This document shows positions 4,298 to 36,145 of a DNA stretch of 43,785 nt, piece by piece. Position 1 is the stretch's first letter. Every line of letters starts with the position of its first letter. Under the pieces are notes generated by a model. That model searched no databases, had not been told where the DNA came from, and worked only from the letters and a program-made list of their open reading frames with translations. The position numbers and the translations under genes were made by a program. The stretch is taken from NCBI GenBank assembly GCA_023150535.1, contig JAKLKS010000004.1, positions 1 through 43,785 of the forward strand, written 5' to 3'. Source of the stretch: Planctomycetota bacterium. Lineage in GTDB: Bacteria; Planctomycetota; JAJSAM01; JAKLKS01.

Positions 4298-4336
4298 GGC
4301 GGGGGCGGGGCGGCCGGCCCGACGCCCCGCCATCCC

Positions 4337-4379: not shown

Positions 4380-4388
4380 GGGATCTCC

Positions 4389-5264: not shown

Positions 5265-5268
5265 CCGA

Positions 5269-5322
5269 TTTACCGTCTCTTCACATGACCCGCGGCCCCG
5301 GTTGACCCCCATCCCCTAGTCT
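5269..5322 (+). promoter_or_regulatory. Pho-box-like repeats upstream of pstS
   Basis: TTTACC(5269), TTCACA(5280), TTGACC(5302) in 11-bp phase; TAGTCT 9 nt after the last repeat. Confidence 0.55.
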
Positions 5323-5392
5323 CCCCCCTGCGGCGCGGGCCGGAGGTGCTCCGGTTCCAGCGGCCGGGCAGGCAAGACACAGGAGGTGTCCC

Positions 5393-6370: not shown

Positions 6371-6524
6371 GCCGCACCCCTCCCGGCGCCGCGCCGGGGG
6401 GAGGCAGCGATACCGGGGGCGGCCCGCCCGGGGCGCCGCATGCGCCGCCGAGGGCCGCCCCTTCCCATCCAAGGGCACCGCGGGGGCGGCGTCGAGCCGG
6501 CCGGCCCCCCGGCAGGCGGGAGCC

Positions 6525-11808: not shown

Positions 11809-11886
11809 GGCCGGACCACCGATCGGGAGCGGTTCCGCGGGGCGGAACCGGCGGCACGCGGGCATGGAAGGCGAAGGAGGGCGGAC

Positions 11887-12765: not shown

Positions 12766-12815
12766 GGAGCCGGCGCGCGGACGGCCCCGGGCCCGGTCCC
12801 GGCGGGGGGAGCGAA

Positions 12816-13514: not shown

Positions 13515-13519
13515 GGCCC

Positions 13520-15071: not shown

Positions 15072-15937
15072 CACTTCTTCCTCCTGCGGAGCCTCGTCCG
15101 GACCCAGATGGAGGCGGCGTTCATGGACATGACGAGGGAGATGAGGACGAGGGCGACGGCGAAGGGGACCGGCTCGGGCACTCCGGGCACCTGGGTGGAG
15201 ATGATGAAGAGGTGGAGGGAGAGTGCCATCGTCTGGTCGTGGATCCCCTCGGGCAGGAAGGGCACGAAGAAGGCGGCGCCCGTGAACATGATGGGGGCCG
15301 TCTCCCCCGCGGTGTGGGCGACCTCCAGGATGACCCCCGTGAGGATCCCGCTCACGGAGTTGGGGAGGACCACGTGGCGGATGGTCTGCCACCGGGTGGC
15401 CCCCATGGCCCAGCAGGCCTCGCGGAAGGCCCGGGGGACCGCCTGGAGCGCCTCCCGCGTGGAGACGATGATGACCGGCAGCGACATGACCGCGAGGGTG
15501 AGGCTCGCGGCGAGGATGCTCGTTCCGAAACGGAAGAAGTAGACGAAGGCCCCCACGCCGAAGAGGGCGTGCACGATGGAGGGGACCCCCGCGAGGTTCA
15601 TGATGGCCAGGTTGATGATCCGGGTCAGGGCGTTGTCGGGGGCGTACTCCGAGAGGTAGACCGCCGCCGCCACGCCGACGGGCACCGACGCCAGGAGGGC
15701 CACGGCCACGAGCCAGACCGTCCCCACGAGGGCGGGCAGGATCCCCCCGGCCGTCATCGCCTCCCGGGGCTCCGTGAAGAGGAACTCCAGGGACAGGGCC
15801 GGGGTCCCCTTCCAGGCCAGCACCCCGAGGATGAGGAGGACGGGGAGGATGATGACGAGGGTGAGCCCGAGGAGGAGCCAGCGCACCAGCCCCTCCCGGG
15901 CGCGGTTGCGCAGGTCGACGGGGGTCGGCTGGAACAC
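15068..15937 (-). CDS. pstA: Phosphate ABC permease PstA (short form)
   Basis: [28 protein letters not shown]...GATRWQ, AGETAPI. Confidence 0.92.
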   Translation of the reverse strand: MFQPTPVDLRNRAREGLVRWLLLGLTLVIILPVLLILGVLAWKGTPALSLEFLFTEPREAMTAGGILPALVGTVWLVAVALLASVPVGVAAAVYLSEYAPDNALTRIINLAIMNLAGVPSIVHALFGVGAFVYFFRFGTSILAASLTLAVMSLPVIIVSTREALQAVPRAFREACWAMGATRWQTIRHVVLPNSVSGILTGVILEVAHTAGETAPIMFTGAAFFVPFLPEGIHDQTMALSLHLFIISTQVPGVPEPVPFAVALVLISLVMSMNAASIWVRTRLRRRKKW

Positions 15938-15939
15938 CG

Positions 15940-16881
15940 CTACCTCCTCCCCCGGCCCCGGAGGAAGAGGTCGGCGGTCAGGTTGATGGCGAAGGTCACG
16001 ACGAAGAGGAGGATCCCGATGGTGAACAGCGCCCGGTAGTGGTCCGACCCGTCCGCCGTCTCGCCCAGCTCGGCCGCGATGGTGGCCGTGAGGGCCCGGA
16101 CCGAGTCGAAGACGCTGGTGGGGACGTTGATGGAGTGGCCGCTCGCCATGAGGACGGCCATGGTCTCCCCGAACCCCCGGCCGACGCCGAGGAGGACGGC
16201 CGCGACGAGGCCGTTGCGGGCCGCGGGGAGGACCACCCTCACCACCACCTGGAGGCGGGAGGCGCCCATGGCCTCGGCGGCCTCCCGGTAGGTGTCCGGG
16301 ACCGCCTTGAGGGCGTCCTCCGCGAGGGTGGTCATGATGGGAGTCGCCATGAGGCCCAGGATGATGCCCGAGTTGAGGACCCCGAGGCCCACGGGCACAT
16401 CGAACACGGAGATGATCGCGGGGTTGACCACGGTCAGCCCGACGAAGCCCCAGACCACGGAGGGCACGGCCGCCAGGAGCTCCACGAGCACCTTGAGGGT
16501 CTCGCGCGTCCTCCCCCGCGCGAACTCGGCGATGTAGATCGCCGCCCCCAGGGAGAAGGGGACCGCCAGCAGCATCGCGAGGCCGGTGACGCTGGCCGTC
16601 CCCGCCATGAGGGCGAGGATGCCGTAGGTCGGGTAGTCGGAGGTGGGCCGCCAGGCCGTGGACCCGAAGAACTCCCCCGGGCGGAAGGGGCCGGTGAGGA
16701 AGCCGAGCCCCTCCTTCCCGATGAAGACGAAGATCCCGAAGATGAAGACGATGGCGGAGATCCCGCCCGCGAAGACCAGGACGCGGACCCCCATGTCCAC
16801 GTACCAGGCGAGGTCCCGGCGGTCGGGAGGTCCGGCCGCCGCGTCCCCGGGGCTCCCGGAGGGCCTATCCTGCGTGCTCAC
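15940..16881 (-). CDS. pstC: Phosphate ABC permease PstC (short form)
   Basis: ELLAAVPSVVWG, AEDALKAVP, GRGFGETMAV, TATIAAELGE. Confidence 0.92.
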   Translation of the reverse strand: MSTQDRPSGSPGDAAAGPPDRRDLAWYVDMGVRVLVFAGGISAIVFIFGIFVFIGKEGLGFLTGPFRPGEFFGSTAWRPTSDYPTYGILALMAGTASVTGLAMLLAVPFSLGAAIYIAEFARGRTRETLKVLVELLAAVPSVVWGFVGLTVVNPAIISVFDVPVGLGVLNSGIILGLMATPIMTTLAEDALKAVPDTYREAAEAMGASRLQVVVRVVLPAARNGLVAAVLLGVGRGFGETMAVLMASGHSINVPTSVFDSVRALTATIAAELGETADGSDHYRALFTIGILLFVVTFAINLTADLFLRGRGRR

Positions 16882-17947
16882 CGCAGAGGGTCTCCATGAG
16901 GCCCCGGATGCGGTAGGCCAGCCGGCGGCAGATCTCCTCGTTCCGGTCGCCCCCGGCCGCCTCGGCGGCGAGGACCTCCCGGTGCCAGTCCAGGAAGACG
17001 GTGCCGTAGGGCAGGTGCTCGACCCGCCGCAGCGCGTCCGGCGCCAGGCCCACGACCACGTCCACCTCGCGCAGGTCCTCGTGGGAGGTCGCGAGCCTCC
17101 GCGGCGCCGCGGCGGGGCTTCCGAGCCCGCGGGCGTCCATGAAGGCGAGGACGGCCGGGTCCGCCCCGGGGGCCGGGTCCCAGCCCGCCGAAGCGTAGGA
17201 GGCCCCCTGGGGGAAGGCCTTGCGGGCGACGGCCTCCGCCAGGAGGCTCGCCCCGGCGTTGCGGTCGTCGATGAAGAGGATGCGGAAGGCGCGCGCCCGC
17301 TTCACCTCCCCCGTCACCGCGAAGATGGTCTCCTCGCAGATGTTCTTGGCCTGGTCGGCGATCCGCTCCAGGCGGCCGAGGATGACCAGGAACGCGAAGG
17401 TGTCCCGCACGGGGATGTCACGGGATTCCGCCTCGGCCAGGAGGTCCCGGTACACCTTCCGGTACACCGTGTCGTTCTGCGTCTCCATGGCCATGGTGCC
17501 GCGGGCGAGGTCGGGGCTCTGCTCGTGGAACGCCTTGAGCGACTGGCGGAGGACGGACCTCGCCTGCTCCGCCATCATCTCGATGTCGCGGGCCACCGTG
17601 ACCGGCGTGGGGGAGGTGCTCTGGACGGCCTCCCGGGAGATGGAGACGGCGTAGTCCCCCACGCGCTCCAGGGCGACGCTCAGGCGAAGGACCGCCGAGA
17701 TGGTGCGTAGGTGGCCGGCGCTGGGAAGGTGGCGGACGACGAAGGCGTGGCAGAGGCGGTCCAGCTCCCGGGTCGCCCGGTTCACGGGCTGGTCGCCGAG
17801 GATGGTCTCCGAGGCGAGGTTGCGGTCCCGCTCCAGGAAGGCCCTCACGGCGGAGCCGAGGGCGGCGTCCAGCAGGAGTCCGAGGGCCGCCACCTTCTCC
17901 CGGAGGACCTGGAGGTCCCTTCCCAGCCGCTCCTCGTAGTGGGTCAC
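16865..17947 (-). CDS. phoU: PhoU fused to a C-terminal degenerate LMW-PTP/ArsC-like domain
   Basis: GTG at 17947 with RBS GGAGGAG; PhoU motifs LERVGDYA and LERIADQAKNICE; C-terminal RILFIDDRNAGASLLAEA...SAG...DW. Confidence 0.85.
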   Translation of the reverse strand: MTHYEERLGRDLQVLREKVAALGLLLDAALGSAVRAFLERDRNLASETILGDQPVNRATRELDRLCHAFVVRHLPSAGHLRTISAVLRLSVALERVGDYAVSISREAVQSTSPTPVTVARDIEMMAEQARSVLRQSLKAFHEQSPDLARGTMAMETQNDTVYRKVYRDLLAEAESRDIPVRDTFAFLVILGRLERIADQAKNICEETIFAVTGEVKRARAFRILFIDDRNAGASLLAEAVARKAFPQGASYASAGWDPAPGADPAVLAFMDARGLGSPAAAPRRLATSHEDLREVDVVVGLAPDALRRVEHLPYGTVFLDWHREVLAAEAAGGDRNEEICRRLAYRIRGLMETLCGEHAG

Positions 17948-17967
17948 GGGCTCCTCCCCGGGGGCCC

Positions 17968-18840
17968 CTACCTGCCGCCCAGGGGGCGGACGGGGGCGTA
18001 CCCCTTGTCCTGGATGATGCGCTGGCCCGCGTCCGAGAGGATCCAGTCGAGGTAGGCGCGGACCTCCCCGGCCGGCTGCCCGCGGGTGTACATGAACAGC
18101 GGCCGCGCGATGGGGTAGGTGCCGTCCAGGGCGGTGGACACGGTCGGGGCGACGCCGGGCTTCCCCTCGCCCCCGGAGACCTTGAGGACCCGGACCTTGT
18201 CGGATTCGTAGGCGAGGCCGCTGAACCCGATGGAACCCGGGGTGCGCGCCACGAGATCCACCACGTCCTTGGAGCCCTGCATGTCGAGGGAGCCCAGCGC
18301 GTACTCCCGCTTCCCGAGGACGGCCTCCTTGAAGTACTCGTAGGTGCCGGAGTTGTTCTGGCGGCTCACCCGGACGATCTTCCCCCCCTCGGCGCCGGGT
18401 ACGGTCACCCCGAGGTCCTCCCAGCGGGCGATCTTCCCTCCCTCGCCGTAGATCTCGGCCAGCTGGGCCAGGGTGATGGACTCCAGGGGATTCGAGCGGT
18501 GCACGTAGACCGCGAGGGCGTCGTGGCCGACCACGAACTCGACGGGCTCGATGCCCTTCGCCTTCGCCTGGGCGCGTTCGGAATCCTTGAGCGAGCGGCT
18601 CGAGTTGGCGATCTCCACGTTCCCGTTGATGAGCGCCGAGATGCCGACCCCGGATCCGCCCCCCGTCACCGAGACGGCGACCTCCGGCTTCACGTCCCGG
18701 TAGCGCTCCGCCCATGCCTGGGCGACGTTGACGAGGGTGTCCGAGCCCTTGTTCTGGATGGCGGCGCGGTTCGAGGACCTCCCCCCGCAGGCGGGGACGA
18801 GGAGGCAGAGGGCGAGGGCGGCGGCGAGGGCGCGGTTCAC
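17968..18840 (-). CDS. pstS: Phosphate-binding lipoprotein
   Basis: GTG start with RBS AAGGAGG; lipobox LLVPAC; NKGSDT, GGGSGVG, SRQNNSGT, YPIARPL. Confidence 0.93.
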   Translation of the reverse strand: MNRALAAALALCLLVPACGGRSSNRAAIQNKGSDTLVNVAQAWAERYRDVKPEVAVSVTGGGSGVGISALINGNVEIANSSRSLKDSERAQAKAKGIEPVEFVVGHDALAVYVHRSNPLESITLAQLAEIYGEGGKIARWEDLGVTVPGAEGGKIVRVSRQNNSGTYEYFKEAVLGKREYALGSLDMQGSKDVVDLVARTPGSIGFSGLAYESDKVRVLKVSGGEGKPGVAPTVSTALDGTYPIARPLFMYTRGQPAGEVRAYLDWILSDAGQRIIQDKGYAPVRPLGGR

Positions 18841-19103
18841 GGGGCCTCCTTCCCTTCCGGGAACAACACCGCCTTTGCATAACCCTTGTCGGCGGGCCGC
18901 ACAAGGTCCAACCGGGGGGCGGGAGGGACGGGGTCGCGCGGGCCCCGACGGGGACGGGAGCCCGCCATCTCCGGGGGGAGACGGCCGGCGGCAGTGCCGC
19001 CTTCGGGAGGGAAGGCCCCCCGGGGGGCGCCCCTCCCCCCGTGCCGGCGGCGGCACGGAAGGGGGAGCCGAGGAGGCCCGTGGTTGGCCGGGGGCCCGCT
19101 CTC

Positions 19104-19144
19104 TTGACGACATCTTTGCGGAGCGGCAACCCCTCGTTCAAGAT
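19104..19144 (+). promoter_or_regulatory. Possible Pho-box-like repeats upstream of porin 1
   Basis: TTGACG(19104), TTTGCG(19115), GCAACC(19126) in 11-bp phase. Confidence 0.35.
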
Positions 19145-19187
19145 CGAGGGGATCCTCCGGCGGGGACACCCCAGGGAGTGGAACGCC

Positions 19188-20585
19188 ATGCGCATCGCCG
19201 CCGCCGGCCTCGCCGCCGCGCTCTGCCTGCAGCCCGCCGCCCTCGCCGCCGACCCCGCCGACGGGGCCCCTCCGAAGACGGAGACGGAGAGGAGGCTCGA
19301 GGAGGTGCTCGCCGAACTGGAGCGCCAGCGCCTGGAGATCGACGGCCTCAAGGCGAAATTGGCGACGGTGGAATCCGGGGCCGGCGTCGAGGCCGTGGTC
19401 GCCCGGTACCTCGAGGACGCGGCGAAGGAGGCGAAGAAGGAGCCGTCGAAGGACGACTTCCGCGTCTTCTGGAAGGACACCCTCAGCTTCGAGACCGCGG
19501 ACAGGGCCGTGACGCTCAAGATCGGCGGCCGCGTCCACTACGACATGGTCTTCCCCGACGCCGACGACGACGTCGAGGCGGCCCGGGGGGACTACGACGC
19601 GACGGCCGGCGCCCGCCGCCTCCGCATGGAGTTCGGCGGGACCCTCTTCGGCACCGTCTACTTCCAGAACAGCGTGGAGTTCGCCGGCACCTCCTACGCG
19701 TGGAAGGACAACTACTTCGGCCTCAGGGGCCTCCCCCTCGGCCTGGACTTCCGGGCCGGGTACTTCAAGGAGCCCTTCAGCCTCGAGCAGGTGACCAGCA
19801 GCAACTTCACCACCTTCCAGGAGCGCTCCTCCGTGGACGTCTTCGCCCCCGCCTTCAACCACGGGGCCATGGTCTCGGGGACCGCCGTCGAGAACCGGGC
19901 GTGGTGGTGGGCCGGGGACTTCTGGGACGGCTCCACCGGCACCGCCCCCATGAACCACAATTTCACCGGCCGGATCGCCGGCCTTCCCTATTTCGAGAAG
20001 GAGGACGCCGCCCTCGTCCACCTCGGCCTCTCCGTCTCCGACCGCAGCCCCGAATCGGAGACCCACCGCTACCAGCAGCGCCCCGAGGCCCCCTTCGTCC
20101 CCCGCCTCGTGGACACGGGGACCTTCTCCGTGGACGACCGGACGCTCCTGGGGTTCGAGGGCGCCTGGGTGATGGGGCCCTTCTCCGCGCAGGCGGAGTG
20201 GATGCAGGCGTCGAACTCCTCCCACCCCGACGCCGGCCCGGCCGGGGGCGACCCCGACTACCGGGGGTGGTACGCCTACGTCTCCTGGTTCCCCACGGGC
20301 GAGAGCCGCGCGGAGGGGTACTCGAAGGGCGCCTTCGGCCGCATCCGCCCGAAGGAGAACTGGGACGGCAAGGGCGGGATGGGGGCCTGGGAGGTGGCGC
20401 TGCGCTACTCGGTCCTCGACCTCGACGACGACGGCGTGGACGGCGGGGTCATGGACTCCTGGACCCTGGGGGTCAACTGGCACCTCAACCCCAACGCGAG
20501 GGTCATGATCAACTACGTGATGTCGAACCTCCACCGCGTGGGGGACGTCGACACCGTGGAGGTCCGCTTCCAGGTCTGCTTCTAG
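19188..20585 (+). CDS. Phosphate-selective porin, OprO/OprP family (paralog 1)
   Basis: Signal peptide, coiled-coil N-terminus, RRLR, GYFKEPFSLE..TSS, ERS, TGESR, GVNWHLN, C-terminal Phe. Confidence 0.88.
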   Translation: MRIAAAGLAAALCLQPAALAADPADGAPPKTETERRLEEVLAELERQRLEIDGLKAKLATVESGAGVEAVVARYLEDAAKEAKKEPSKDDFRVFWKDTLSFETADRAVTLKIGGRVHYDMVFPDADDDVEAARGDYDATAGARRLRMEFGGTLFGTVYFQNSVEFAGTSYAWKDNYFGLRGLPLGLDFRAGYFKEPFSLEQVTSSNFTTFQERSSVDVFAPAFNHGAMVSGTAVENRAWWWAGDFWDGSTGTAPMNHNFTGRIAGLPYFEKEDAALVHLGLSVSDRSPESETHRYQQRPEAPFVPRLVDTGTFSVDDRTLLGFEGAWVMGPFSAQAEWMQASNSSHPDAGPAGGDPDYRGWYAYVSWFPTGESRAEGYSKGAFGRIRPKENWDGKGGMGAWEVALRYSVLDLDDDGVDGGVMDSWTLGVNWHLNPNARVMINYVMSNLHRVGDVDTVEVRFQVCF

Positions 20586-20688
20586 CCCGCCGGGCGCGGT
20601 CCGCGCGCGCCCCGCGGCGCCCCGCCGCGGGGCGCCCCGGTTCCGGGGGACCCCCCGCCGCCGCGGTGTGACCGGACGCGCAATCACA

Positions 20689-20717
20689 TGGACATATCCG
20701 CATACATGGGGGATGAT
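20689..20717 (+). promoter_or_regulatory. Sigma70-like promoter of the ars operon; AT-rich spacer may be the ArsR operator
   Basis: TGGACA-N17-GATGAT, then 6 nt to GTG at 20724. Confidence 0.5.
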
Positions 20718-20723
20718 GGGCCC

Positions 20724-21098
20724 GTGGCGACCCTCGACGACGCCGTCCGGATCGGGAAGGCCCTGTCGGACCGCACCCGCGTGCGGATCCTGGCCGCCCT
20801 GACCGTCCGGCCCCTCTGCGTCTGCGAGATCACCGCCCTCGTCCCCGCGGGGCAGCCGGCCGTGTCCCGCCACCTGGGGATCCTGCGCGCCGCGGGGCTC
20901 GTGGAGGACGTCCGCGACGGGAGGTGGGTCAACTACCGGCTCCGCCGGGTCGACCGCCGCCTCCTCGCCGGCGCCGCCCTCCGGTGCCTCTCCGCGGGCC
21001 TCGCGGGCGATCCCGACCTGCGCGGGGTGCGCGACCGCGCGAGGACCGTGTGCCGCACCAGGCTCCGAGCGCCCCCCCGGCGGAGGGCCCTCCCTTGA
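20724..21098 (+). CDS. arsR: ArsR/SmtB family repressor with alpha3 CVC site
   Basis: KALSDRTRVRIL, PLCVCEI, QPAVSRHLGILRAAGLV, RDGRWVNY; start could alternatively be 20688. Confidence 0.88.
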   Translation: MATLDDAVRIGKALSDRTRVRILAALTVRPLCVCEITALVPAGQPAVSRHLGILRAAGLVEDVRDGRWVNYRLRRVDRRLLAGAALRCLSAGLAGDPDLRGVRDRARTVCRTRLRAPPRRRALP

Positions 21099-21387: not shown

Positions 21388-21827
21388 CCCCCCGCTCCGC
21401 CGCCGCGCTGGCGGGGCTCGTCGTCCTCGTGGCGGGGCTCGCGGTCTACCGGGAGTCGCGCCGGGAGGGCCCGGGCCCCGCTCCAGGCTCCCCCCCCGCC
21501 GCCGCCCCGGCCCCCGCCCCCTCCGCCGCCCCCGCGCCCGCCCCCCTCCCCCGGGTGCTCGACTTCGGCCGGGACACCTGAGCCTCCTGCAAGCGGATGA
21601 AGCCGGTTCTGGAGGAACTGGCCCGGAGGCACGAGGGGAAGGTGGAGGTCCGCATCGTGGACATCCGCGAGCCCGCGGGGGAGGAGCTCGCGAGGACCCA
21701 CCGCGTGAACCTCATCCCGACCCAGGTCCTGCTGGACGCGGCGGGGAGGGAGCGGTTCCGCCACGAGGGGTTCCTCCCCCTGGAGGACCTGGAGGCGGAG
21801 CTGGCGAGGCTCGGATGGACCCGCTGA
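21384..21827 (+). CDS. Membrane-anchored thioredoxin, predicted selenoprotein (UxxC; Sec at TGA 21579-21581)
   Basis: GTG overlapping the upstream stop; TM anchor, Pro/Ala linker, LDFGRDT-U-ASC-KRMKP then in-frame IPTQVLLD..G.E.FRHEG. Confidence 0.85.
21602..21622 (+). promoter_or_regulatory. Bacterial SECIS-like hairpin
   Basis: GCCGGUUC/GAACUGGC stem, UGGAG loop starting 28 nt after the UGA. Confidence 0.7.
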
Positions 21828-22540
21828 TCCTCCTCGCCGCCGCCTCGGAGGAGGGCCTGGCGGAGACGGTGCGCCGGCTCCTGGCGGAGTCCCCCTGGCT
21901 CGCCCCTGGGGCGGTGTTCCTCGGGGGGGTGCTCACGGCGCTCAATCCCTGCGTGCTGGCGACGCTCCCCCTGGTGGTGGCCTTCGTCGGGGGGCGGAGG
22001 GACGCGACCTCCGCGGGCCGGGGGATCGCGCTCACCCTCGCCTTCGTCGGGGGGCTCTCCGCGTCCTTCGCCGCCCTCGGCGTCGCCGCCGCGCTGACGG
22101 GGCGCCTGCTCGGGGACGCGGGGAGGTTCTGGGACTACGCGATCCTCGTCGTCTGCCTCGCCATGGGGGTCCACCTGACGGGGCTCCTCGAGGTCCCGCT
22201 CCCGAACTGGACCGTGACGCCCCGCTGGAGGGGCCTGCCGGGGGCGGCGGCCCTCGGCGCGCTCTTCGGCGCCGTCTCGACCCCCTGCGCCACGCCCATC
22301 CTCGTCGTCGTCATGGCCTACGTGGCCTCCTCGGGGGCGAGCCTCGCCTGGGGGGCGTTCCTCCTGTTCGTCTACGCGCTGGGGCACAGCCTTCTCCTCT
22401 TCGCCGTGGGGGCGTCCGCCGGCGCGGCGCGCACCCTCCTCGAATCCCCCCGTCTCGCCCTGGCCGGGCGGCGGCTCCGGCAGGGGGCCGGGATCCTCAT
22501 CGCCGCCGTCGGCGTCTGGGTCTTCCTCTCGAGGTCCTGA
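21815..22540 (+). CDS. CcdA/DsbD-beta family transmembrane disulfide reductant (ArsG-like)
   Basis: About 6 TM helices with LNPCVL and TPCATP. Confidence 0.85.
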   Translation: MDPLILLAAASEEGLAETVRRLLAESPWLAPGAVFLGGVLTALNPCVLATLPLVVAFVGGRRDATSAGRGIALTLAFVGGLSASFAALGVAAALTGRLLGDAGRFWDYAILVVCLAMGVHLTGLLEVPLPNWTVTPRWRGLPGAAALGALFGAVSTPCATPILVVVMAYVASSGASLAWGAFLLFVYALGHSLLLFAVGASAGAARTLLESPRLALAGRRLRQGAGILIAAVGVWVFLSRS

Positions 22541-22543: not shown

Positions 22544-23713
22544 ATGTCCGAGCGCGCGAAGCTCCTCCTCCTCGCCGGCGTCTTCCTCGCCTGCTGGGCC
22601 ACCCCCTTCGGGGAGCCCCGTGTCCAGGGGGCGATCCTCGAGGGATTCCGCCTCCTCGGGGACTACGCCCGCGAGCACGTGATCCTCTGCCTCGTCCCGG
22701 CGCTCTTCATCGCCGGGGGGATCGTGGTCTTCCTCTCCCAGGGCGCGGTGATGCGGTACCTCGGGGCGAAGGCGGACCGGGTCGTGGCCTACGCCGTGGC
22801 CTCGGTCTCCGGGGGGATCCTGGCCGTCTGCTCCTGCACCGTCCTGCCGCTCTTCGCGGGGATCTACCGCCGCGGCGCCGGGCTCGGGCCCGCGACCTCC
22901 TTCCTGTACTCGGGACCGGCCATCAACGTGCTGGCCATCGTCCTGACGGCGCGGGTGCTCGGGTGGGAGATCGGCCTCGCCCGGGGCCTCGGGGCGATCC
23001 TGTTCGCGGTCGTCATCGGGCTGTCCATGGGGGCGCTCTTCCGCGGGGAGGAGGAGGAGCGGATCGAGAACGGCCCCGACCCCTTCGCGGCGGAGGGGGA
23101 GGCCGGGATCGGCCGGGCGGCCGCCATCCTCGGGGCGATGGTCGGCCTCCTCGTCTTCGCCAACTGGTCGAGGCCGGCGGAGGCCGGGGGGGTCCTCCAC
23201 GCCGTCTGGACCGTGAAGTGGTGGCTCGCCGGGGCCTGCCTCGCGGCCACGCTCCTCCTGGCCTGGAAGCGGTACGGCGCGGAGGAGCGGAGGACCTGGG
23301 TCGAGGAGACCTGGACCTACGCGAAGATGATGCTCCCGCTCCTGCTGGCCGGCGTCCTCGTCTCCGGCTTCCTCCTCGGCCGCCCCGGCGAGGACGCGGG
23401 CATCGTCCCCGAGCGCTGGATCCGGGACCTCGTCGGGGGGAACTCCCTGGCCGCCAACTTCTTCGCGGCGCTCTTCGGCGTCCTCATGTACTTCGCCACG
23501 CTCACCGAGGTCCCCATCCTCCAGGGGCTCATCGGGTCCGGCATGGGGCAGGGGCCGGCGCTGGCGCTCCTCCTCTCCGGACCGGCCGTCTCCCTCCCGA
23601 GCCTGCTGGTCATCCGCGGCGTGCTCGGGACGAGGAAGACCCTCGCCTACGCGGGGCTCGTCCTCGTCTTCTCGACCCTCGCGGGGTGGATCTACGGGGG
23701 GCTGGCGGGCTGA
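22544..23713 (+). CDS. DUF318/ArsP-family permease (organoarsenical efflux type)
   Basis: REHVILCLVPA, LAVCSCTVLP, SGPAIN, MYFATLTEVPI, GPAVSLPS. Confidence 0.85.
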   Translation: MSERAKLLLLAGVFLACWATPFGEPRVQGAILEGFRLLGDYAREHVILCLVPALFIAGGIVVFLSQGAVMRYLGAKADRVVAYAVASVSGGILAVCSCTVLPLFAGIYRRGAGLGPATSFLYSGPAINVLAIVLTARVLGWEIGLARGLGAILFAVVIGLSMGALFRGEEEERIENGPDPFAAEGEAGIGRAAAILGAMVGLLVFANWSRPAEAGGVLHAVWTVKWWLAGACLAATLLLAWKRYGAEERRTWVEETWTYAKMMLPLLLAGVLVSGFLLGRPGEDAGIVPERWIRDLVGGNSLAANFFAALFGVLMYFATLTEVPILQGLIGSGMGQGPALALLLSGPAVSLPSLLVIRGVLGTRKTLAYAGLVLVFSTLAGWIYGGLAG

Positions 23714-23740: not shown

Positions 23741-23770
23741 TTCTGCGGCCCCCTTGCCCCCTCTTCGCGG
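23741..23770 (+). repeat. 30-bp direct repeat, copy 1 (copy 2 at 28742-28771)
   Basis: TTCTGCGGCCCCCTTGCCCCcTCTTCgCGG; 28/30 identical to copy 2. Confidence 0.75.
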
Positions 23771-23878
23771 GGGTGCAAGACCGTTCCTGAGCGCTCCGCT
23801 CCGGATCCCGAGGGCGGCTCCCCTTCTCCCTTCGGAGGAGGCGTTCCCCCGCTCCACGGCCTCGCGCCGCCTCCGGCG

Positions 23879-24020
23879 GGGAGGGGACCCCGCCGGGCGA
23901 CGCCCTTGCGGGATGGTGGGGCCATCGAGCCCCTCCCGGGGACTCCCTCCCCGCCGGGAGAAGCCACCGGGGTTCCGAGGGCCCTCCCCTCCCGCCGGTC
24001 ACCGCCGGCCCCTCCACCCC
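23879..24020 (-). repeat. ~140-bp inverted repeat, left copy
   Basis: Reverse complement aligns without gaps to 28531-28672, about 13 mismatches in 140 nt by hand count. Confidence 0.9.
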
Positions 24021-24324
24021 GCCGAGGACTCGCCCCCCTTCCCCCTTCCGGCGGGCCGTGAGGCGGAGGCAACGGCCTCTCCCATCAACGGAGATTGGGG
24101 GTTAATCCAAACGGGTGCAGGGAATTTCCCCCTCCGACCGGGCTTCCTCCCCAAACCGAACTCGCGACCACTCGCCCGTCACCCCGGTTCCTTGCCGGGC
24201 GTCAATCTCCCCCCGCGGGGCCCGTCGGTTGCTGGGCGACTTCGCCAGTCCGCAATCGGAGCTCCGGCCCGTGAGCCGGATGAGGATGCGGTGCAGCCTT
24301 GGGCCGCTGCAGGGAGGGCGAGGA

Positions 24325-25278
24325 ATGAAGCCATCGGGAGAAGAGTCCGGCCTCCTGTCACGCAGGGGGCTCCTCGTGGGTGCCGCATGCGCCGGCGTCG
24401 GGGCCGCCGTCGGAGGCATCGCCGCCGCCGGGGCCCCGGCGGAAGAGGCAGGCGGTCCCGCCCCCCCGGTGCCCGAGGGACCGGGCGAGACCCTCCGGAT
24501 GCTCCGGGACCTCCGAAGGGCCCTCGCCAGGAAGCCGGAGGAGCGGCGCTGGGGGATGGTCATCGACACGCGCCGGTGCATCGGGTGTCACGCCTGCACG
24601 GTCGCCTGCGTCGCCGAGAACAACCTGCCCTCGGGGGTGACCTACAGGAGGGTCTTCGAGGACTCCTACGGGGACTACCCCGACGTCCGGACCTCCTTCA
24701 TGCCCACGAACTGCATGCAGTGCGAGAAGCCCCCCTGCGTGGAGGCTGCCAACCGCGTCGTCCCCGGGGCCATGGGGAGGACGGTCGAGGGCGTCGTGAC
24801 GATCGACTACGCGAAGATGAAGGGACGCGAGGTGTTCGAGGTGGCCCGGAAGGCATGCCCCTACACGGCCCTCTACCTCGACGAAGGTCGGAACCACACG
24901 GACGGGACGCCCGCCGTTCAGGACTACGAGACGCGACCCGTCCCCGAGTACGGGAGGACCTGGACCCGCGGGGAGACGAAGGGCTCGACGAGGAAGTGCC
25001 ACTTCTGCCTGCACAGGGTCGATGCCGGACGCCTCCCTGCCTGCGTGTCCACCTGCACGGGGCTCGCCATGCAATTCGGGGACCTGGCCGATCCGAAAAG
25101 CCTCGTCTCCGAGAGGGTCGCCACGGGAGCCTGCCGGAGGCTCCATCCGGACAAGGGGACGAGCCCCCGCGTCCACTTCCTGGACGACTGGCCTGCCGAG
25201 GACGAGAAGGAGGCACCGCCCCCCCTCTCCAACCGTCCACGTCAGGACTGCTTGCGGTGCCACGAGTTCGGCCGGTGA
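24325..25278 (+). CDS. Tat-exported Fe-S subunit (TtrB/NrfC/DmsB family), predicted three clusters plus C-terminal CxxCH
   Basis: SRRGLL Tat motif; CIGCHACTVAC, CMQCEKPPCVEAA, KACPY, KCHFC..PACVSTC; ends DCLRCHEFGR. Confidence 0.85.
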   Translation: MKPSGEESGLLSRRGLLVGAACAGVGAAVGGIAAAGAPAEEAGGPAPPVPEGPGETLRMLRDLRRALARKPEERRWGMVIDTRRCIGCHACTVACVAENNLPSGVTYRRVFEDSYGDYPDVRTSFMPTNCMQCEKPPCVEAANRVVPGAMGRTVEGVVTIDYAKMKGREVFEVARKACPYTALYLDEGRNHTDGTPAVQDYETRPVPEYGRTWTRGETKGSTRKCHFCLHRVDAGRLPACVSTCTGLAMQFGDLADPKSLVSERVATGACRRLHPDKGTSPRVHFLDDWPAEDEKEAPPPLSNRPRQDCLRCHEFGR

Positions 25279-25319
25279 CGGGAGGCGACGCGGGCCGCGG
25301 AACGAGGGAGGAAACGAGG

Positions 25320-28300
25320 ATGCCCAAGAACAGAGGCGGCTTGCCAGACGAGTTCCGGGACTCCCGCCGGGGGTTCCTCGCCGGGGCCGCGCTCGCCGCC
25401 GGAAGCGCCGTCGCCTCGACCAGGGCAGCGGTCGCCCTCGCTGGCGAGGAGAAGGCCCCGCCGGCATCGCCCCCGGGAGGTCTCCCGGATGCCGACATCC
25501 GCACCGTGTGTCTGCAGTGCAACACGGGGTGCGGCATCCGCGTCCACACGCGCAACGGGAGCGCCGTCAAGATCGACGGGAACCCCTACAGCCCGTGGAC
25601 CATGGTGCCCTCGCTCCCCTACGCGACCCCCCTGGCGCAGTCTTCCCTCGTCGAGGGCTCTCTGTGTCCGAAGGGGCAGTCGGGGATCCAGACGGCCCAC
25701 GACCCCTACCGCGTGACCTCGGTCCTGAAGCGCTCCGGACCCCGGGGTTCCAACCGCTGGGAGACCGTCCCCTTCGACAAGGCCCTCGAGGAGATCGTGG
25801 AGGGCGGACGCCTCTTCGCGAAGGTCCCGGGTGAGGAAGGGCGCGAAGTCGCGGGGCTCCGGTCGCTGTTCGCGCTCCGCGACCCGAAGGTCGCCAAGGA
25901 GATTTCGGACGCCGTCTCCGCCCTGCGGAAGAAGAAGGCCCCGGACGACAGGAAGAAGGCCCTGGCGGAGTTCCGCGAGAAGTTCGCCGACCACCTCCAG
26001 GCCCTGATCGACCCCGACCACCCCGACTTCGGCCCCAGGAACAACCAGTTCGTGTTCGCATGGGGGAGGCTCAAGGGAGGGAGGTCGGAGTTCATCAAGC
26101 GGTTCGTGTCGGACTCCTTCGGATCCGTGAACGCCCACGGACACACGACGGTGTGCCAGGGCTCCCTCTACTTCACCGGGAAGGCCATGAGCGACCAGTT
26201 CTCGGAGGGCAAGTTCACCGGCGGCGGCAAGGCCTACTGGCAGGCCGACACGGCGAACGTGGAGTTCCTCATCGCCATCGGCTCGGCCTACATCGAGGGC
26301 GGCTACGGCCCCACCCACCACGCCCGCAAGCTCATGGCCAACCTCGTCGAGGGGAAGGTCAAGATCGCGGTCGTGGACCCGAGGTTCTCGAAGATCGCCG
26401 CCAAGGCCTGGAAGTGGGTCCCCGCGAAGCCCGGGACCGAGGGGGCGCTGGCCCTCGGCATGATCCGCTGGATCCTCGACAACGGGCGCCACGACGCGAA
26501 GTTCCTCTCCGCGGCGAACAAGGCCGCCGCGAAGGCGGCCGGCGAGTCCACGTGGACCAACGCCGCGTGGCTCGTGAAGGAGGACGGTTCTCTGCTGCGC
26601 GCATCGGAGATCGACATCGACGACAAGAGGAAGAAGAAGGCCGCGACCGGGCCCGATTGGGAACTCGACCCCTTCGTGGTGCTGCAGGGCGGGACTCCCC
26701 GGGCGGTGGACCCCGACGACGACTCCATGGCGATCACCGGGGACCTCCTCTTCACGGGGGAGGTCTCCGGGATCCGGGTGAAGACCTCCCTCCAGATCCT
26801 CCGGGAGTCGGCCAACTCCCGGACGCTCGCGGAGTGGGCGGCCCTCTGCGGGTTGGAGCCCTCCGTCCTCGAGGAACTGGCGCGGGAGTTCACCTCCCAC
26901 GGGAAGCGCGCCGTGGCGGACCTGCACCGGGGGGCCTCCCAGCACACCAACGGCTTCTACAACGTGCTGGCGATCTACAGCCTGAACGCCCTCGTCGGGA
27001 ACTTCGACTGGAAGGGCGGGCTCCTGAAGGCGACCACCTTCGACCACGCGGGCGGGAAGCCCGGGCAGCCCTACCCCCTCGCGAAGCTCCACCCCGCCAA
27101 GGCGGTCCCCTTCGGCCTCTCCGTCATCCGGCACGAGGCCTCCTACGAGGAATCGACGGTCTTCTCGGGGTACCCGGCGAAGCGCAACTGGTACCCGTTC
27201 GCGAGCGACATCTACCAGGAGATCATCCCGTCCATCGGGGACGCCTATCCCTACCCGGCGAAGGCCCTGTTCCTCTACATGGCCAATCCCGCCTACGCGT
27301 TGCCCGCGGGGAACACCAACATCGAGGTCCTCGCGGACCCGTCGAGGCTCCCCCTGGTGGTGGCCTGCGACATCACGATCGGCGAAACCACCCTCTACGC
27401 GGACTACGTGTTCCCCGACACCGGGTACCTCGAGCGGTGGGAGTTCCAGGGCAGCCACCCCTCCATCGCCGAGAAGGTCCAGCCGATCCGCAACCCGGCC
27501 ATCGCCTCGCCCAACGGGACCGTCCGGGTCTTCGGCGAGGAGATGCCCCTGTCCCTTGAGGCCATGCTGATCGGACTGGCGGCGAAACTCGGCCTCCCCG
27601 GCTACGGACCGGACGGCCTCGGGAAGGAACTTCCGCTCGCCCGGGCCGAGGACGTGTACCTCAAGATGGCCGCCAACGTGGCCTCCGGAGACGGGCCCGG
27701 GGAAGCGCTCCCGGAGGCCGACGACGCGGAGGTCGCCGCCTTCCTGGAGGCGCGGAAGCACCTTCCCGCGACGGTCTTCGACGCGGAGCGATGGAAGAAG
27801 GCCGCGGGCGAGGCCCACTGGAAGAGGGTGGTGTACGTCCTCAACCGGGGCGGGAGGTTCCAGGACAGCGAGAAGGCGTTCTCCGGGGAGAAGTTCGCCA
27901 ACAAGTACGGGAAGACGCTGAACCTCTACCTGGAGAAGGTGGCCCGGGCCAAGTCGGCGATGTCGGGGAAGCCCCTCGCCGGGGTGGCGGCCTACTTCCC
28001 CGTGGCGGACCTCCTCGGGAAGCCCGTCCCCGGCTCGGGGGATCCCGACGCCCTGACCCTCATCACCTACCGGGTCATCACCCAGACCAAGTCGCGGACC
28101 GTCGCCAACGACTGGCTGACGCAGGTCCAACCGTCGAACGAGATCCTGGTGAACTCCGCCGATGCGAAGAGGCTCGGGATCGCGAAGGGACAGCGCGTCC
28201 GCGTCGTCTCCGCGAGCAATCCGCGCGGGGTCTGGGACCTCCGGAACGGCACCGAGAAGCCCATGGTGGGTGCGGTCTCGGTCACCGAGGGCCTGCGCCC

Positions 28301-28526
28301 GGGCGTCGTGGCCTTCTCCCTCGGCAAGGGCCACTGGGCCTACGGTTCGTCGGACGCCTGGATCGACGGGAAGAGGATCCCCGGGGACCCGCGCCGCGCT
28401 GCGGGCGTCCACGCCAACGCCGCCATGGCGGTGGACCCGCACCTGAAGAACACGTGCCTCGTGGACCCCATCGGCGGGAGCGTGTCCTTCTACGACAGTC
28501 CCGTGCGCCTCGTCAAGGAGGGGTAG
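25320..28526 (+). CDS. Molybdopterin oxidoreductase catalytic subunit, tetrathionate reductase (TtrA/SrdA)-like
   Basis: SRRGFL Tat motif; CLQCNTGC...CPKG FS0 motif; GNPYSP, HTTVC, YADYVFPD..YLERW; 1068 aa. Confidence 0.85.
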   Translation: MPKNRGGLPDEFRDSRRGFLAGAALAAGSAVASTRAAVALAGEEKAPPASPPGGLPDADIRTVCLQCNTGCGIRVHTRNGSAVKIDGNPYSPWTMVPSLPYATPLAQSSLVEGSLCPKGQSGIQTAHDPYRVTSVLKRSGPRGSNRWETVPFDKALEEIVEGGRLFAKVPGEEGREVAGLRSLFALRDPKVAKEISDAVSALRKKKAPDDRKKALAEFREKFADHLQALIDPDHPDFGPRNNQFVFAWGRLKGGRSEFIKRFVSDSFGSVNAHGHTTVCQGSLYFTGKAMSDQFSEGKFTGGGKAYWQADTANVEFLIAIGSAYIEGGYGPTHHARKLMANLVEGKVKIAVVDPRFSKIAAKAWKWVPAKPGTEGALALGMIRWILDNGRHDAKFLSAANKAAAKAAGESTWTNAAWLVKEDGSLLRASEIDIDDKRKKKAATGPDWELDPFVVLQGGTPRAVDPDDDSMAITGDLLFTGEVSGIRVKTSLQILRESANSRTLAEWAALCGLEPSVLEELAREFTSHGKRAVADLHRGASQHTNGFYNVLAIYSLNALVGNFDWKGGLLKATTFDHAGGKPGQPYPLAKLHPAKAVPFGLSVIRHEASYEESTVFSGYPAKRNWYPFASDIYQEIIPSIGDAYPYPAKALFLYMANPAYALPAGNTNIEVLADPSRLPLVVACDITIGETTLYADYVFPDTGYLERWEFQGSHPSIAEKVQPIRNPAIASPNGTVRVFGEEMPLSLEAMLIGLAAKLGLPGYGPDGLGKELPLARAEDVYLKMAANVASGDGPGEALPEADDAEVAAFLEARKHLPATVFDAERWKKAAGEAHWKRVVYVLNRGGRFQDSEKAFSGEKFANKYGKTLNLYLEKVARAKSAMSGKPLAGVAAYFPVADLLGKPVPGSGDPDALTLITYRVITQTKSRTVANDWLTQVQPSNEILVNSADAKRLGIAKGQRVRVVSASNPRGVWDLRNGTEKPMVGAVSVTEGLRPGVVAFSLGKGHWAYGSSDAWIDGKRIPGDPRRAAGVHANAAMAVDPHLKNTCLVDPIGGSVSFYDSPVRLVKEG

Positions 28527-28796: not shown

Positions 28797-28871
28797 CCAG
28801 TCCACGTCCGGAGGCGCAGGGGGCCCACAGGGCAGGGCCCATCGCCCCGGAGACCTTCCAGGAGGAACAGC

Positions 28872-30272
28872 ATGAAGCGCATCGCAGGCGGGCTCGCCCT
28901 CGCGGCCGGCCTCCTCGCCTCGGCCCCCGGCGCCTTCGCCGCGGACGCCGCCGGCGGGAAGACCGAGGCCGAGAGGCGTCTCGAGGAGGTCCTCGCCGAG
29001 CTCGAGGCCCAGCGCCTCGAGATCAACGGACTCAAGTCGCAGCTCGCCGTCGTCCAGGGCGGGTCGGGCATCGAGGCGCAGGTGATGAAGTACCTCGCCG
29101 CCGACGAGGCGAAGAAGACGGACGCCTCCAAGGACGACTTCCGCGTGTTCTGGAAGGAGGGCCTCAACTTCCAGACCGCGGACAAGGCCTTCCACCTCAA
29201 GGTGGGCGGCCGGATCATGTACGACATGGTCTTCCCCGACGCCGACGACGACGTCGAGGCGAAGGCCGGCGACTTCGACGCCCTCTCCGGCTTCCGCCGC
29301 CTGCGCGTCGAGTTCGAGGGGACGATCTTCAAGAACGTCTTCTACAAGAACGTCATCGACTTCTCCGACACCGGCTACGCCTACAAGGACAACCTCATCG
29401 GGTTCTCCGGCCTGCCGGCCGTGGGCAACTTCCAGGTGGGCTACTTCAAGGAGCCGGTGGGCCTCGAGGAGCTGACCTCCAGCAAGTACATCACCTTCAC
29501 CGAGCGCTCCATCGCCACGAACGCCTTCGTCCCGGCCCACAACCACGGCTTCCAGTTCTTCAACAACTACCAGGACGGCGACATCACCTGGGCGGTGGGC
29601 GACTTCTGGGACGGCGGCACCGGCGCCGCGCGCGTGGAGCACGGCTTCTCCGGCAGGGTCACCTGGGTGCCCTTCAAGAACAAGGACGACGGCACCCTCT
29701 TCCACGTCGGCGGGTCGGCGCAGCTCCGCAGCCCCGACGCCGAATCCGACCGCTTCCGCGCCCGGCCCGAGACCCCCTTCACGCCCCGGACCCTCGACAC
29801 GAAGGTGATCTCCGTGGACAACGAGACCATCCTCGGCCTCGAGGGCGCCTGGGTGATGGGGCCCTTCTCGGTCCAGGGCGAGTACTACCGGGCCTCCATC
29901 GACGGCCACCCGGACGTGGCGGGCTCCCCGGACCCCGAGTTCTCCGGCTTCTACCTCGCCGGCTCCTACTTCCTGACCGGCGAGTCCCGCCCCTACAAGA
30001 ACGGGACCTTCGGCCGCGTCAAGCCGAAGACGACCTTCGAGGGCGAGACCCTCGGCGGCGCCTTCGAGGTCGCGCTCCGGTACGCCAAGGTGGACCTCGA
30101 CGACGACGGCGTCCAGGGCGGCGTCGCCAGCGACTGGACGGTGGGCCTCAACTGGTACCTCAACACCAACACCCGCGTCATGCTCGACTTCGTGCTGCAC
30201 GAGGTCCGCTGGGACTCGGACACGGAGGGGGACGTGAAGTCCGTGGTCCTGCGCTTCCAGGTCGACTTCTAG
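28872..30272 (+). CDS. Phosphate-selective porin, OprO/OprP family (paralog 2)
   Basis: RBS AGGAGG; signal peptide; FRRLR, GYFKEPVGLEELTSS, TGESRPY, GLNWYLN, C-terminal Phe. Confidence 0.88.
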   Translation: MKRIAGGLALAAGLLASAPGAFAADAAGGKTEAERRLEEVLAELEAQRLEINGLKSQLAVVQGGSGIEAQVMKYLAADEAKKTDASKDDFRVFWKEGLNFQTADKAFHLKVGGRIMYDMVFPDADDDVEAKAGDFDALSGFRRLRVEFEGTIFKNVFYKNVIDFSDTGYAYKDNLIGFSGLPAVGNFQVGYFKEPVGLEELTSSKYITFTERSIATNAFVPAHNHGFQFFNNYQDGDITWAVGDFWDGGTGAARVEHGFSGRVTWVPFKNKDDGTLFHVGGSAQLRSPDAESDRFRARPETPFTPRTLDTKVISVDNETILGLEGAWVMGPFSVQGEYYRASIDGHPDVAGSPDPEFSGFYLAGSYFLTGESRPYKNGTFGRVKPKTTFEGETLGGAFEVALRYAKVDLDDDGVQGGVASDWTVGLNWYLNTNTRVMLDFVLHEVRWDSDTEGDVKSVVLRFQVDF

Positions 30273-33451: not shown

Positions 33452-34154
33452 TCACCTCCTCTTCGGCGCGATCTCCGCGGCCTTCGCCGCGTCGCTCCAG
33501 AGGCCCCGCGCCCCCTCCCGGGCGCCGCGCTCCGCCTCCCGGAACCGCTCGGCGTGCCGGACGTTGGGCGGGTACCGGTAGGCGAAGGCGTAGCCCTCCT
33601 CGACCAGCGCCAGGTTCACGAAGAGGCCGTCCTCCCGGTGGACGTAGGCGAGGGTGCGGCCGTAGCGGTCCTTCCGCTCGACGTCGAACTCCAGGCGCAC
33701 GCGCCGTCCCTCGACCATCTCGCGGGCCCGCTTCGCCGCCTCCTTCCCGTACCACTGCACCGCCCGGCGCGGGTCCACGCTCTCCGGCGTGTTGATGCCC
33801 GTGAGGCGGACCTTCTCCTTCCCGTCGAGTTCCAGCGTGTCCCCGTCCACCACGCGGACCACGGTGCGGAGGGGGGAATCCGGCGCCTCCACGGCCGGGG
33901 CGGGGGACGGGGGAGCCGGAGAGGGCGATGGGGGCGCCGCCGCCTCCCCCCCCCTCCGGCAGGAGTTCCGGGATCCGCTCCCCCGCGGTCCGGGCCTTCG
34001 CCAGGAGCAGCTCCACCGCGGCCCGCACCCGGTCGGCCGCGAGGGATCTCCCGGGAGGCGAGGCGTAGGCGGCCCCGACCCCGCCCCCGAAGAGGGTGAG
34101 CGCGATCAGGAAGCCGAGTCCGTGGGGGAAGCGGCGGCGGGGTTTCGGGTCCAT
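33452..34154 (-). pseudogene. Membrane-anchored thermonuclease (SNase) with frameshift in a G9 tract (33946-33954)
   Basis: VVDGDT, VRLTGINTPES, DRYGRTLAYV, ARGLW; the N-terminal TM segment MDPKPRRR..GLGFLIAL is in the adjacent frame. Confidence 0.7.
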
Positions 34155-34282
34155 CCCCCCTTCATCGGCAGGGGAGGCCCCGGAGGCGGAGCCGACCCCC
34201 ACCGGTGGGGGGGATTCCCCCCGGCGTCCGCCATTCCTTGCGATTGCTCCTCCCCGTCCCGGGGGAGCGGTACCATCCCGGG

Positions 34283-36115: not shown

Positions 36116-36145
36116 CCCCGCGCGGGGCGGAACCGAGGAGGAGCC

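Follow-up and report, generated by a model that had tools for sequence, protein, structure and literature searches.

A Ttr-like molybdoenzyme locus of a Planctomycetota bacterium whose iron-sulfur subunit lacks the ligands of one cluster and ends in a conserved CxxCH motif

Two adjacent genes, here called B and A and together BA, lie on the forward strand of contig JAKLKS010000004.1 of a Planctomycetota bacterium, of which 43,785 nucleotides (the window) were analysed. B encodes a TtrB-like iron-sulfur (Fe-S) subunit with ligands for three [4Fe-4S] clusters and a terminal CxxCH motif, and A encodes a TtrA-like catalytic subunit of the molybdenum bis-pyranopterin guanine dinucleotide (Mo-bisPGD) type (coordinates are given in Table 1). 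The window has a G+C content of about 72%, so that long spurious open reading frames (ORFs) are plentiful; genes were chosen by third-position G+C (GC3) and Pfam matches, and a 1590-aa ORF at positions 23754-28526 is one such spurious frame. The frame and coordinates given for B in an earlier reading of the letters (the sequence-only reading) proved right: the ORF translates into 317 aa and has a ribosome-binding site, GGAGGG, ahead of it. In the public annotation B (P0003, 259 aa) covers positions 24499-25278 of the window, starts at Met59 and lacks the twin-arginine translocation (Tat) signal. R13 and R14 of this signal (SRRGLLVG) show at least 90% conservation among 109 relatives, which makes the long form the correct one; the motif RRx[FLVI] was found in 103 of these 109 full-length proteins. 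Several relatives of 256-260 aa appear N-terminally shortened in the same way as P0003. A starts 39 nt downstream of B; it, too, begins with a Tat signal (SRRGFLAG), and it contains an FS0 Cys motif. Among curated NCBIfam models, A matched TtrA best (480.5 bits, cut-off 1750), with ArrA (102.4, cut-off 1600) and PhsA weaker, and B scored 113.8 against TtrB (cut-off 416) and 128.5 against ArrB (cut-off 450).

Translation of B showed that Cys groups I (C85, C88, C91 and C95) and IV (C225, C228, C240 and C244) are complete. Group II retains its first three cysteines, with Ala142 at the Cys4 position, and the group III stretch, IDYAKMKGREVFEVARKACPY, running from IDYAKMK to ARKAC178PY, retains only Cys4. 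In HMMER alignments the degenerate stretches stand opposite CVPVC and KKCIACGACIAACPY of PsrB (2vpw_B) and opposite CVKVC and ECIGCKKCMNACPY of ArrB (6cz7_B). The absence of group II Cys4 and group III Cys1-3, claimed in the sequence-only reading, was thus seen both in the translation and in the alignments to PsrB and ArrB. The 12 cysteines that are kept provide the ligands for three [4Fe-4S] clusters, and B does not have the four-Cys-group, four-cluster pattern of beta subunits of the DmsB/NrfC/PsrB/TtrB type. The four missing residues are what we take to be the ligands of a single cluster, FS4, the one nearest the membrane anchor in the nomenclature of DmsB/NarH; this assignment agrees with solved three-cluster beta subunits that lack the same four positions. 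In an alignment of 109 sequences the 12 cluster cysteines and H313 were invariant, C309, C312, A141 and A142 were at least 90% conserved, and no conserved Cys was found beyond the 12 and C309 and C312. The possibility that C309, C312 and H313 ligate a fourth cluster was rejected, there being no fourth family-specific ligand and the His being kept more strictly than the Cys residues.

An AlphaFold2 model of B, computed with the 109-sequence alignment, had a mean predicted local distance difference test (pLDDT) score of 88.3. The last three blocks of ten residues scored 80-83, so the tail was not modelled as disordered. Structural comparison with VIA-align placed ArrB (6cz7_B) first, with a Z score of 22.2 and a root mean square deviation of 2.5 over 211 aligned residues, and PsrB (2vpw_B) directly behind it (Z 22.1), followed by ActB of ACIII, PcrB, EbdB, the beta subunit of transhydroxylase (18.1), Desulfovibrio FdhB (17.6) and FdnH (17.2). 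For FdnH, PcrB, EbdB and NarH the aligned ranges, read by their end points, extend to model residue 316-317. As modelled, B is a double-ferredoxin fold encoded beside a Mo-bisPGD subunit gene.

The C-terminus of B reads QDCLRCHEFGR, with CLRCH (C309, C312 and H313) followed by only four residues, as the sequence-only reading had stated. CxxCH occurs only twice in all six frames of the window, both times inside B. A word-indexed search yielded 1441 relatives, and motifs were counted in the best 120 of them. All 120 carried a single CxxCxxCxxxC motif, that of group I, with no group III motif; CxxCH was terminal in 117 of them, the exceptions ending in CTAACH, YHT and FHT. Since the motif is so rare in the six frames, is carried by 117 of 120 relatives and contains an invariant H313, a chance origin of the terminal CxxCH is excluded on sequence grounds. 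The His is the fixed element and the cysteines vary: six loci forming a mostly Bipolaricaulota subclade have CxxxH, with Cys2 replaced by Q, H or W, and three sequences have [YF]H, with both cysteines replaced. An invariant His with variable Cys fits an axial haem ligand better than it fits an Fe-S or thiol site. A search among representatives at 50% identity returned mostly fragments and four-cluster proteins; among its best 150, four had a single group I-type motif together with a terminal CxxCH.

In a scan of one genome per species, the best 80 of 570 confirmed loci were classified. The cluster ligands were lost in 45 of the 80, and the degenerate group III pattern is common to all 45; their tails were CxxCH in 38, CxxxH in 6 and His only in 1. 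B and A were adjacent in all 44 of these loci in which A was present, with gaps of -28 to 191 nt. The ligands were intact in the other 35, none of which ended in CxxCH; a single regular-expression match to the His-only form in this group is the ordinary ending KVHYLL. In 26 of the 33 intact loci with A downstream, B and A were separated by 1.1-1.6 kb, and all nine gap ORFs scanned with Pfam encoded NrfD; in the remaining seven, B and A were adjacent. Loss of FS4, a His-containing tail (45/45) and a B-A pair with no NrfD between the genes (44/44) thus occurred together, and conservation of the tail motif, on which the sequence-only reading had made itself depend, held both among the 120 relatives and in the 38 of 45 loci. 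A quick maximum-likelihood tree of the B core put the 46 cluster-less rows (the 45 loci and the query) on one side with an SH-aLRT support of 100, a split that is partly built in because the columns take in the degenerate region. The cluster-less rows carry labels of at least 11 named phyla. The group likely had one origin, and the identities of 45-67% between its members and the query B show that the tail has been retained for long under divergence.

Some members of the family deviate from this pattern. In seven B proteins of a Nitrospirota/Desulfobacterota subclade (L024, L030, L031, L040, L045, L049 and L060) group I reads CVGDxAC, Asp replacing Cys2, and most of them also have CTFC instead of CHFC in group IV, which suggests an altered first cluster. 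The B of a Bipolaricaulia locus (L027:3217-11416) is cluster-less and ends in ECQRWH; its partner A is shorter (877 aa), and the locus further encodes a NarJ-like chaperone, an EB_dh haem b subunit and CcmE/CcmF. The arrangement is type II-like, with the same type of B. At L015:918-9300 the tail of B has no Cys (AAAYHT), and A is followed by a cytochrome c7, a cytochrome with ten CxxCH motifs and an MtrB/PioB porin, resembling an outer-membrane electron conduit. In two loci of Desulfobulbaceae (L053:1423-1728 and L068:9303-9785), which represent a related subclade without an anchor, B keeps all four clusters and no NrfD lies between B and A. These are two of the seven adjacent intact loci, and in both the gene immediately before B encodes a trihaem cytochrome c7.

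Table 1. Features of the BA genes and of neighbouring genes in the window (positions count from the first letter of the window)
Feature	Positions	Strand	Basis or remark
B, TtrB-like Fe-S subunit	24325..25278	+	317 aa by translation; Pfam Fer4_11; ligands for three clusters
Twin-arginine R13 R14 of the Tat signal of B	24361..24366	+	at least 90% conserved in 109 relatives
Group II of B: C130, C133, C138, then Ala142 at the Cys4 position	24712..24750	+	HMMER alignments to PsrB and ArrB
Degenerate group III of B, IDYAKMKGREVFEVARKACPY; sole Cys left is Cys4 (C178)	24802..24864	+	HMMER alignments to PsrB and ArrB
CLRCH (residues 309-313), candidate c-haem attachment site	25249..25263	+	translation, conservation
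A, TtrA-like Mo-bisPGD catalytic subunit, 1069 aa	25317..28526	+	Pfam Molybdop_Fe4S4, Molybdopterin, Molydop_binding
WGR..GR motif (G250-R251) to predicted Mo-ligand Cys280 (HGHTTVC) in A	26064..26156	+	regular expression and alignment, 77 A subunits
ArsR/SmtB-family regulator	20688..21098	+	Pfam HTH_5; NCBIfam HTH_metalloreg
DsbD/CcdA-type transmembrane thiol-reductant transporter	21815..22540	+	Pfam DsbD_TM 3.3e-21
ArsP_1-family permease	22544..23713	+	Pfam ArsP_1 8.3e-73
Outer-membrane phosphate-type porin (OprO/P family), downstream of A	28869..30272	+	Pfam Porin_O_P 6.6e-54; signal peptide

The neighbourhoods of 32 cluster-less loci were investigated by Pfam searches of flanking ORFs, from about -4 kb to +7 kb. 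Genes of ars type (ArsR-family HTH_5, ArsP_1, Thioredoxin_3, DsbD_TM, LMWPc and SBF/Acr3) were found in 9 of the 32 flanks besides the window (L003, L004, L005, L010, L020, L022, L028, L039 and L060), and ArsP_1, which lies next to BA in the window, also adjoins it in L004, L020, L022, L039 and L060. Sets of sensor kinase and response regulator were present in eight (L030, L031, L033, L049, L008, L012, L050 and, partially, L073), the first four of which include a phosphonate-type periplasmic binding protein. In eight loci (L007, L008, L012, L034, L044, L050, L073 and L029) BA adjoins a gene for a protein of 336-407 aa from one family (mutual identity 28-61%), with signal peptides, aromatic C-termini and weak porin matches (Porin_O_P 1.9e-4, Porin_4, BBP2); with a weak Porin_O_P gene after A in L011, porin-like genes thus flank BA in nine loci besides the window. 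Molybdenum-cofactor genes and FmdE are frequent around BA. ResB/CcsA and multihaem cytochromes precede B in L013 and L025, which L017 and L021 resemble in ORF size, number of transmembrane helices and CxxCH count only, and ResB/CcsA or Ccm genes stand beside BA in L013, L025, L027 and L029. Two loci (L010 and L014) have the order cytochrome b561 (Ni_hydr_CYTB), B, A and Rieske [2Fe-2S] protein; b561 also lies upstream of B in L016, and L010 further contains LMWPc, an Acr3-type SBF and ArsR.

Elsewhere in the window, positions 1793-20585 are densely packed with phosphate-related genes: a PhoB/PhoR-like pair, two Pst-type ABC systems, PhoU and an OprO/P porin. This upstream porin (18732-20582) is 54.6% identical to the one after A, and a permease ORF of 920 aa (6354-9113) has weak beta-propeller matches ahead of its BPD_transp_1 domain. 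The genes for topoisomerase VI B and A (Topo-VIb_trans; TOP6A/Spo11 Toprim) stand side by side at 34100-37279 (+), in what is apparently a bacterial metagenome-assembled genome.

No NrfD gene was found among the 33 ORFs of the window by Pfam, nor by a six-frame search, as the sequence-only reading had claimed for a TtrC/NrfD anchor. The six-frame search was extended to the whole genome (529 contigs, 88% complete), in which NrfD was found only on contigs C489 and C15. On C489 (1714-6413, locus L085) one ORF fuses a Fer4_11 domain of the four-cluster type to NrfD and is followed by its own Mo subunit, a NarJ-like chaperone and a SulP transporter. The NrfD gene on C15 follows its own gene for a 249-aa Fer4 protein, with no catalytic subunit in the 9 kb read. 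A search for NrfD_2 (PF14589) gave no match in this genome, but its positive controls gave none either. A cognate anchor, which could have spoken against the sequence-only reading, was thus not evident: in all 44 cluster-less loci with A the two genes adjoin, most loci of the sister clade have NrfD between them, and both NrfD genes of the genome have an Fe-S partner of their own. For cytochrome c assembly, two matches to PF01578 (CcsA/CcmF type) were obtained, one with a weak ResB match beside it, and the genome seems to be limited to a System II-like locus. PF01578 was also found in all ten other genomes tested that carry a CxxCH-type B; this co-presence is at best weakly consistent with covalent haem, which it fails to refute.

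The reading we favour, with moderate confidence for the whole of it, is that BA is a Tat-exported periplasmic Ttr-like molybdoenzyme, a soluble heterodimer without a quinol-oxidising NrfD/TtrC anchor, which has a c-type haem at its C-terminus and probably handles arsenate. B would contain three [4Fe-4S] clusters, the anchor-proximal fourth having been deleted as in soluble Desulfovibrio FdhAB, and the CxxCH tail would replace the lost cluster, most likely by carrying a covalent c-type haem with His313 as axial ligand. Electrons from a membrane quinol dehydrogenase or a periplasmic cytochrome c pool would reach the tail haem and pass on through the three clusters of B and FS0 of A to the Mo-bisPGD; they may enter, or leave, by way of this haem. 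The substrate would be an anion, probably entering through the adjacent phosphate-type porin, and reduction of arsenate to arsenite is the most likely reaction. The parts of this proposal are not equally firm. The anchorless three-cluster architecture can be put forward with high confidence, and solubility with coupling to cytochromes is almost as probable, whereas attachment of haem at the CxxCH tail is favoured by a small margin over its absence. The lost cluster, the absent anchor gene and the conserved terminal motif suggest that cytochromes, and not quinones directly, supply electrons to these probably arsenic-handling enzymes. From the sequence-only reading, which had proposed a soluble, quinone-independent enzyme wired through a c-type haem or another partner, the architecture, the conservation of the motif and the lack of an anchor stand, and its haem and its solubility stay predictions from sequence.

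If the tail does carry haem, the family may amount to a natural C-terminal 'haem tag', in which a folded, Tat-exported Fe-S protein is loaded with haem after export. Haem would then replace the fourth cluster and the NrfD anchor in a hybrid Fe-S/haem c beta subunit, and the widespread Ttr-like (arsenate) reductases with a 'missing TtrC' would be complete, quinone-independent enzymes that connect to the cytochrome c pool of the periplasm; we hold this to be an evenly balanced proposition. System I has been reported to need little beyond CXXCH and to mature peptides of 12 residues, and according to the same review c-type cytochromes of the periplasm normally travel by Sec and receive their haem while unfolded (PMC3601427).

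Several observations weigh against the proposed enzyme. B carries a Tat and not a Sec signal, and no precedent was found for a Tat-exported Fe-S protein with covalent haem. The maturation of 12-residue peptides concerns System I, and the present genome apparently has a System II-like locus only, with no match to CcmE at 88% completeness. PF01578 was likewise present in 9 of 14 control genomes, which weakens the argument from cytochrome c assembly. Some relatives stop exactly at CH, with no residue after the His. In the tree a single branch sets off the cluster-less group, so the co-occurrence of cluster loss and tail in 45 of 45 loci may reflect one ancestral event and not repeated coupling. 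One of the 32 cluster-less flanks (L018) does contain NrfD, as part of a distinct Fer4-NrfD-Fer4/FlpD cluster that lies 2.4 kb upstream of B. With regard to the substrate, the Gly-Arg motif described below also occurs in the NrfD-containing sister clade and is no marker of the cluster-less one.

As for the substrate, arsenic in the form of arsenate or arsenite is as probable as all other substrates together. Arsenate is favoured because of the ars, sensor and phosphate-type porin neighbours and because of published Ttr-like enzymes. WGR precedes the predicted Mo-ligand Cys280 of A by 30 residues. This spacing presumably resembles that from R165 to C193 in ArrA, and by spacing the Gly-Arg position of A would correspond to R165 of ArrA. 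'Ttr-like' arsenate reductases have been described as distinct from true Ttr and from true Arr, with a Gly-Arg pair that is conserved in arsenic enzymes and missing from bona fide Ttr (PMC12949373). A Ttr-like ttrA of M. roseus, which adjoins an 'ArrTSR' sensor set and an ars operon, was transcribed more strongly with arsenate, although only the induction of psr/phsA was clearly significant (PMC5492636). A less likely alternative, which we nevertheless regard as a serious one, is an enzyme of the same architecture acting on a sulfur compound (tetrathionate, thiosulfate or polysulfide) or on selenium or antimony. Among curated models A is nearest to TtrA and PhsA, 23 of the 32 loci have no ars genes in the flank examined, and Ttr-like enzymes have been proposed for thiosulfate disproportionation, with TtrAB lacking TtrC in sulfur disproportionators (PMC9751629). 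The score of A against TtrA, however, lies far under the cut-off, A has the Gly-Arg motif that bona fide Ttr is said to lack, and ars, sensor and phosphate-porin neighbours recur around BA.

With respect to the tail, CxxCH may not be a haem site at all but a flexible extension that binds a metal or metalloid (As(III), Zn or Fe), takes part in thiol redox reactions or docks a partner, in which case, as in FdhAB, a separate carrier would accept electrons straight from the third cluster. In favour of this are the shortness of the tail, the repeated presence of thiol-reductant genes (DsbD_TM, Thioredoxin_3) next to BA, the binding of As(III) by vicinal cysteines, a Tat route that speaks against handling by Ccs/Ccm, and the example of FdhAB, which functions with three clusters and without haem. 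It is, however, the His that is invariant, while both cysteines are lost in three sequences and Cys2 in a whole subclade, and CxxC spacing with an immediate His is the exact haem c signature, found only twice in the six frames of the window. A tail without haem therefore appears rather unlikely to us. The proposal that an anchor encoded elsewhere links BA to the quinone pool, with the Fer4 and NrfD pair on C15 as candidate, is improbable. It draws on the two NrfD genes in the genome, on the lack of a catalytic subunit in the 9 kb around the C15 pair and on the 88% completeness, whereas B lacks the anchor-facing cluster, each NrfD gene is accompanied by an Fe-S partner of its own, on C489 by a separate Mo subunit as well, and throughout the clade (44 of 44 loci) A directly follows B with no NrfD. 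Finally, a decaying TtrB that lost its cluster by drift and acquired CxxCH by chance, for which a GC3 of B (0.87) slightly under the values of its neighbours could be quoted, can practically be dismissed in view of conservation across at least 11 named phyla at 45-67% identity, the invariant His, the confident AlphaFold2 model and the intact operon.

The sequence-only reading had named BA as a candidate for an undescribed system, which holds in part. Three-cluster beta subunits are known from soluble enzymes (FdhAB, transhydroxylase), TtrAB lacking TtrC has been noted before (PMC9751629) and ascribed in a preprint by Flieder to a contig end, and Ttr-like arsenate reductases are already in print (PMC5492636, PMC12949373). 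A full-text literature search returned nothing on a missing cluster or on CxxCH in TtrB-like proteins, and cluster loss combined with a CxxCH tail was unreported in the literature searched. What appears to be new here is the loss of this cluster in a Ttr-like clade together with a conserved terminal CxxCH. Duval et al. noted that haem had not been reported in the complexes they treat (PMC2500031); for a clade that spans at least 11 named phyla, this picture would have to be revised in the light of a conserved B with three clusters and a haem motif. If true, the proposed enzyme would explain the recurring reports of TtrAB lacking TtrC and would change models of energy conservation for Ttr-like arsenate reducers; in one metatranscriptome study of paddy soils, ttrA transcripts exceeded those of arrA (PMC11462812). 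Should haem be covalently attached to a Tat-exported protein, this would also matter for substrate recognition by cytochrome c maturation systems.

Among known systems, BA resembles TtrBCA of the Salmonella type in that the B gene comes first, A is long (about 1050-1090 aa) and matches the TtrA model best, and both subunits have a Tat leader, described as a Ttr trait (PMC12949373). The sister clade shares with TtrBCA the gene order B-NrfD-A. BA differs in having no C gene, three cluster sites instead of four and an additional CxxCH tail, and from bona fide TtrBCA in the presence of the Gly-Arg motif and in scores far below the TtrA and TtrB equivalog cut-offs. Like B, the beta subunit of Desulfovibrio FdhAB (PDB 6sdr/30gj, 1h0h) lacks group II Cys4 and group III Cys1-3. 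In HMMER alignments to B, FdhB of D. vulgaris (30gj_B) shows CRHCVEPPCKGQAD and AKVDGESVRSACPY at these places, and the beta subunit of pyrogallol-phloroglucinol transhydroxylase (4v4c_B) shows CMHCENAPCVAKGN and DPEKAKGKKEL..DTCPY. Both of these proteins, which we take to contain three clusters, lack the same four cysteines and keep the other 12. Since they do, loss of exactly this cluster is, at the level of sequence, a known route to an anchorless beta subunit. FdhAB is a soluble periplasmic Mo/W-bisPGD heterodimer; BA is probably soluble likewise, to judge from the missing anchor gene and the missing anchor-facing cluster. FdhAB belongs to a different catalytic clade, and FdhB has no C-terminal CxxCH because its cytochrome is a protein in its own right; periplasmic FdhAB probably has type I cytochrome c3 as its partner (PMC4215793). 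The degenerate stretch of transhydroxylase beta is very similar to that of B, but the protein has neither a Tat signal nor a CxxCH tail; the transhydroxylase is a cytoplasmic, non-redox enzyme.

ArrAB/CymA of Shewanella (6cz7) provides the best structural match of B, and arsenate is the likely substrate common to BA and ArrAB. In contrast to BA, the gene order of ArrAB is AB. ArrB has all four Cys groups, and the scores of both A and B lie below the Arr equivalog cut-offs. Electrons reach ArrAB from a c-type cytochrome instead of an NrfD anchor (PMC2762525). With the 'Ttr-like' arsenate reductases (M. roseus MROS_1074-1076; Anaeromyxobacter sp. PSR-1) BA shares a TtrA-like catalytic subunit. 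The layout in M. roseus, with kinase, regulator, one gene, B and A, is that of the Ignavibacteriales loci L008 and L012, in which the gene before B is porin-like and not NrfD, whereas the published Ttr-like enzymes are drawn as TtrABC; passages of those papers on the enzymes make no mention of a missing cluster or of CxxCH. The enzymes of M. roseus and strain PSR-1 may themselves be members of the cluster-less clade.

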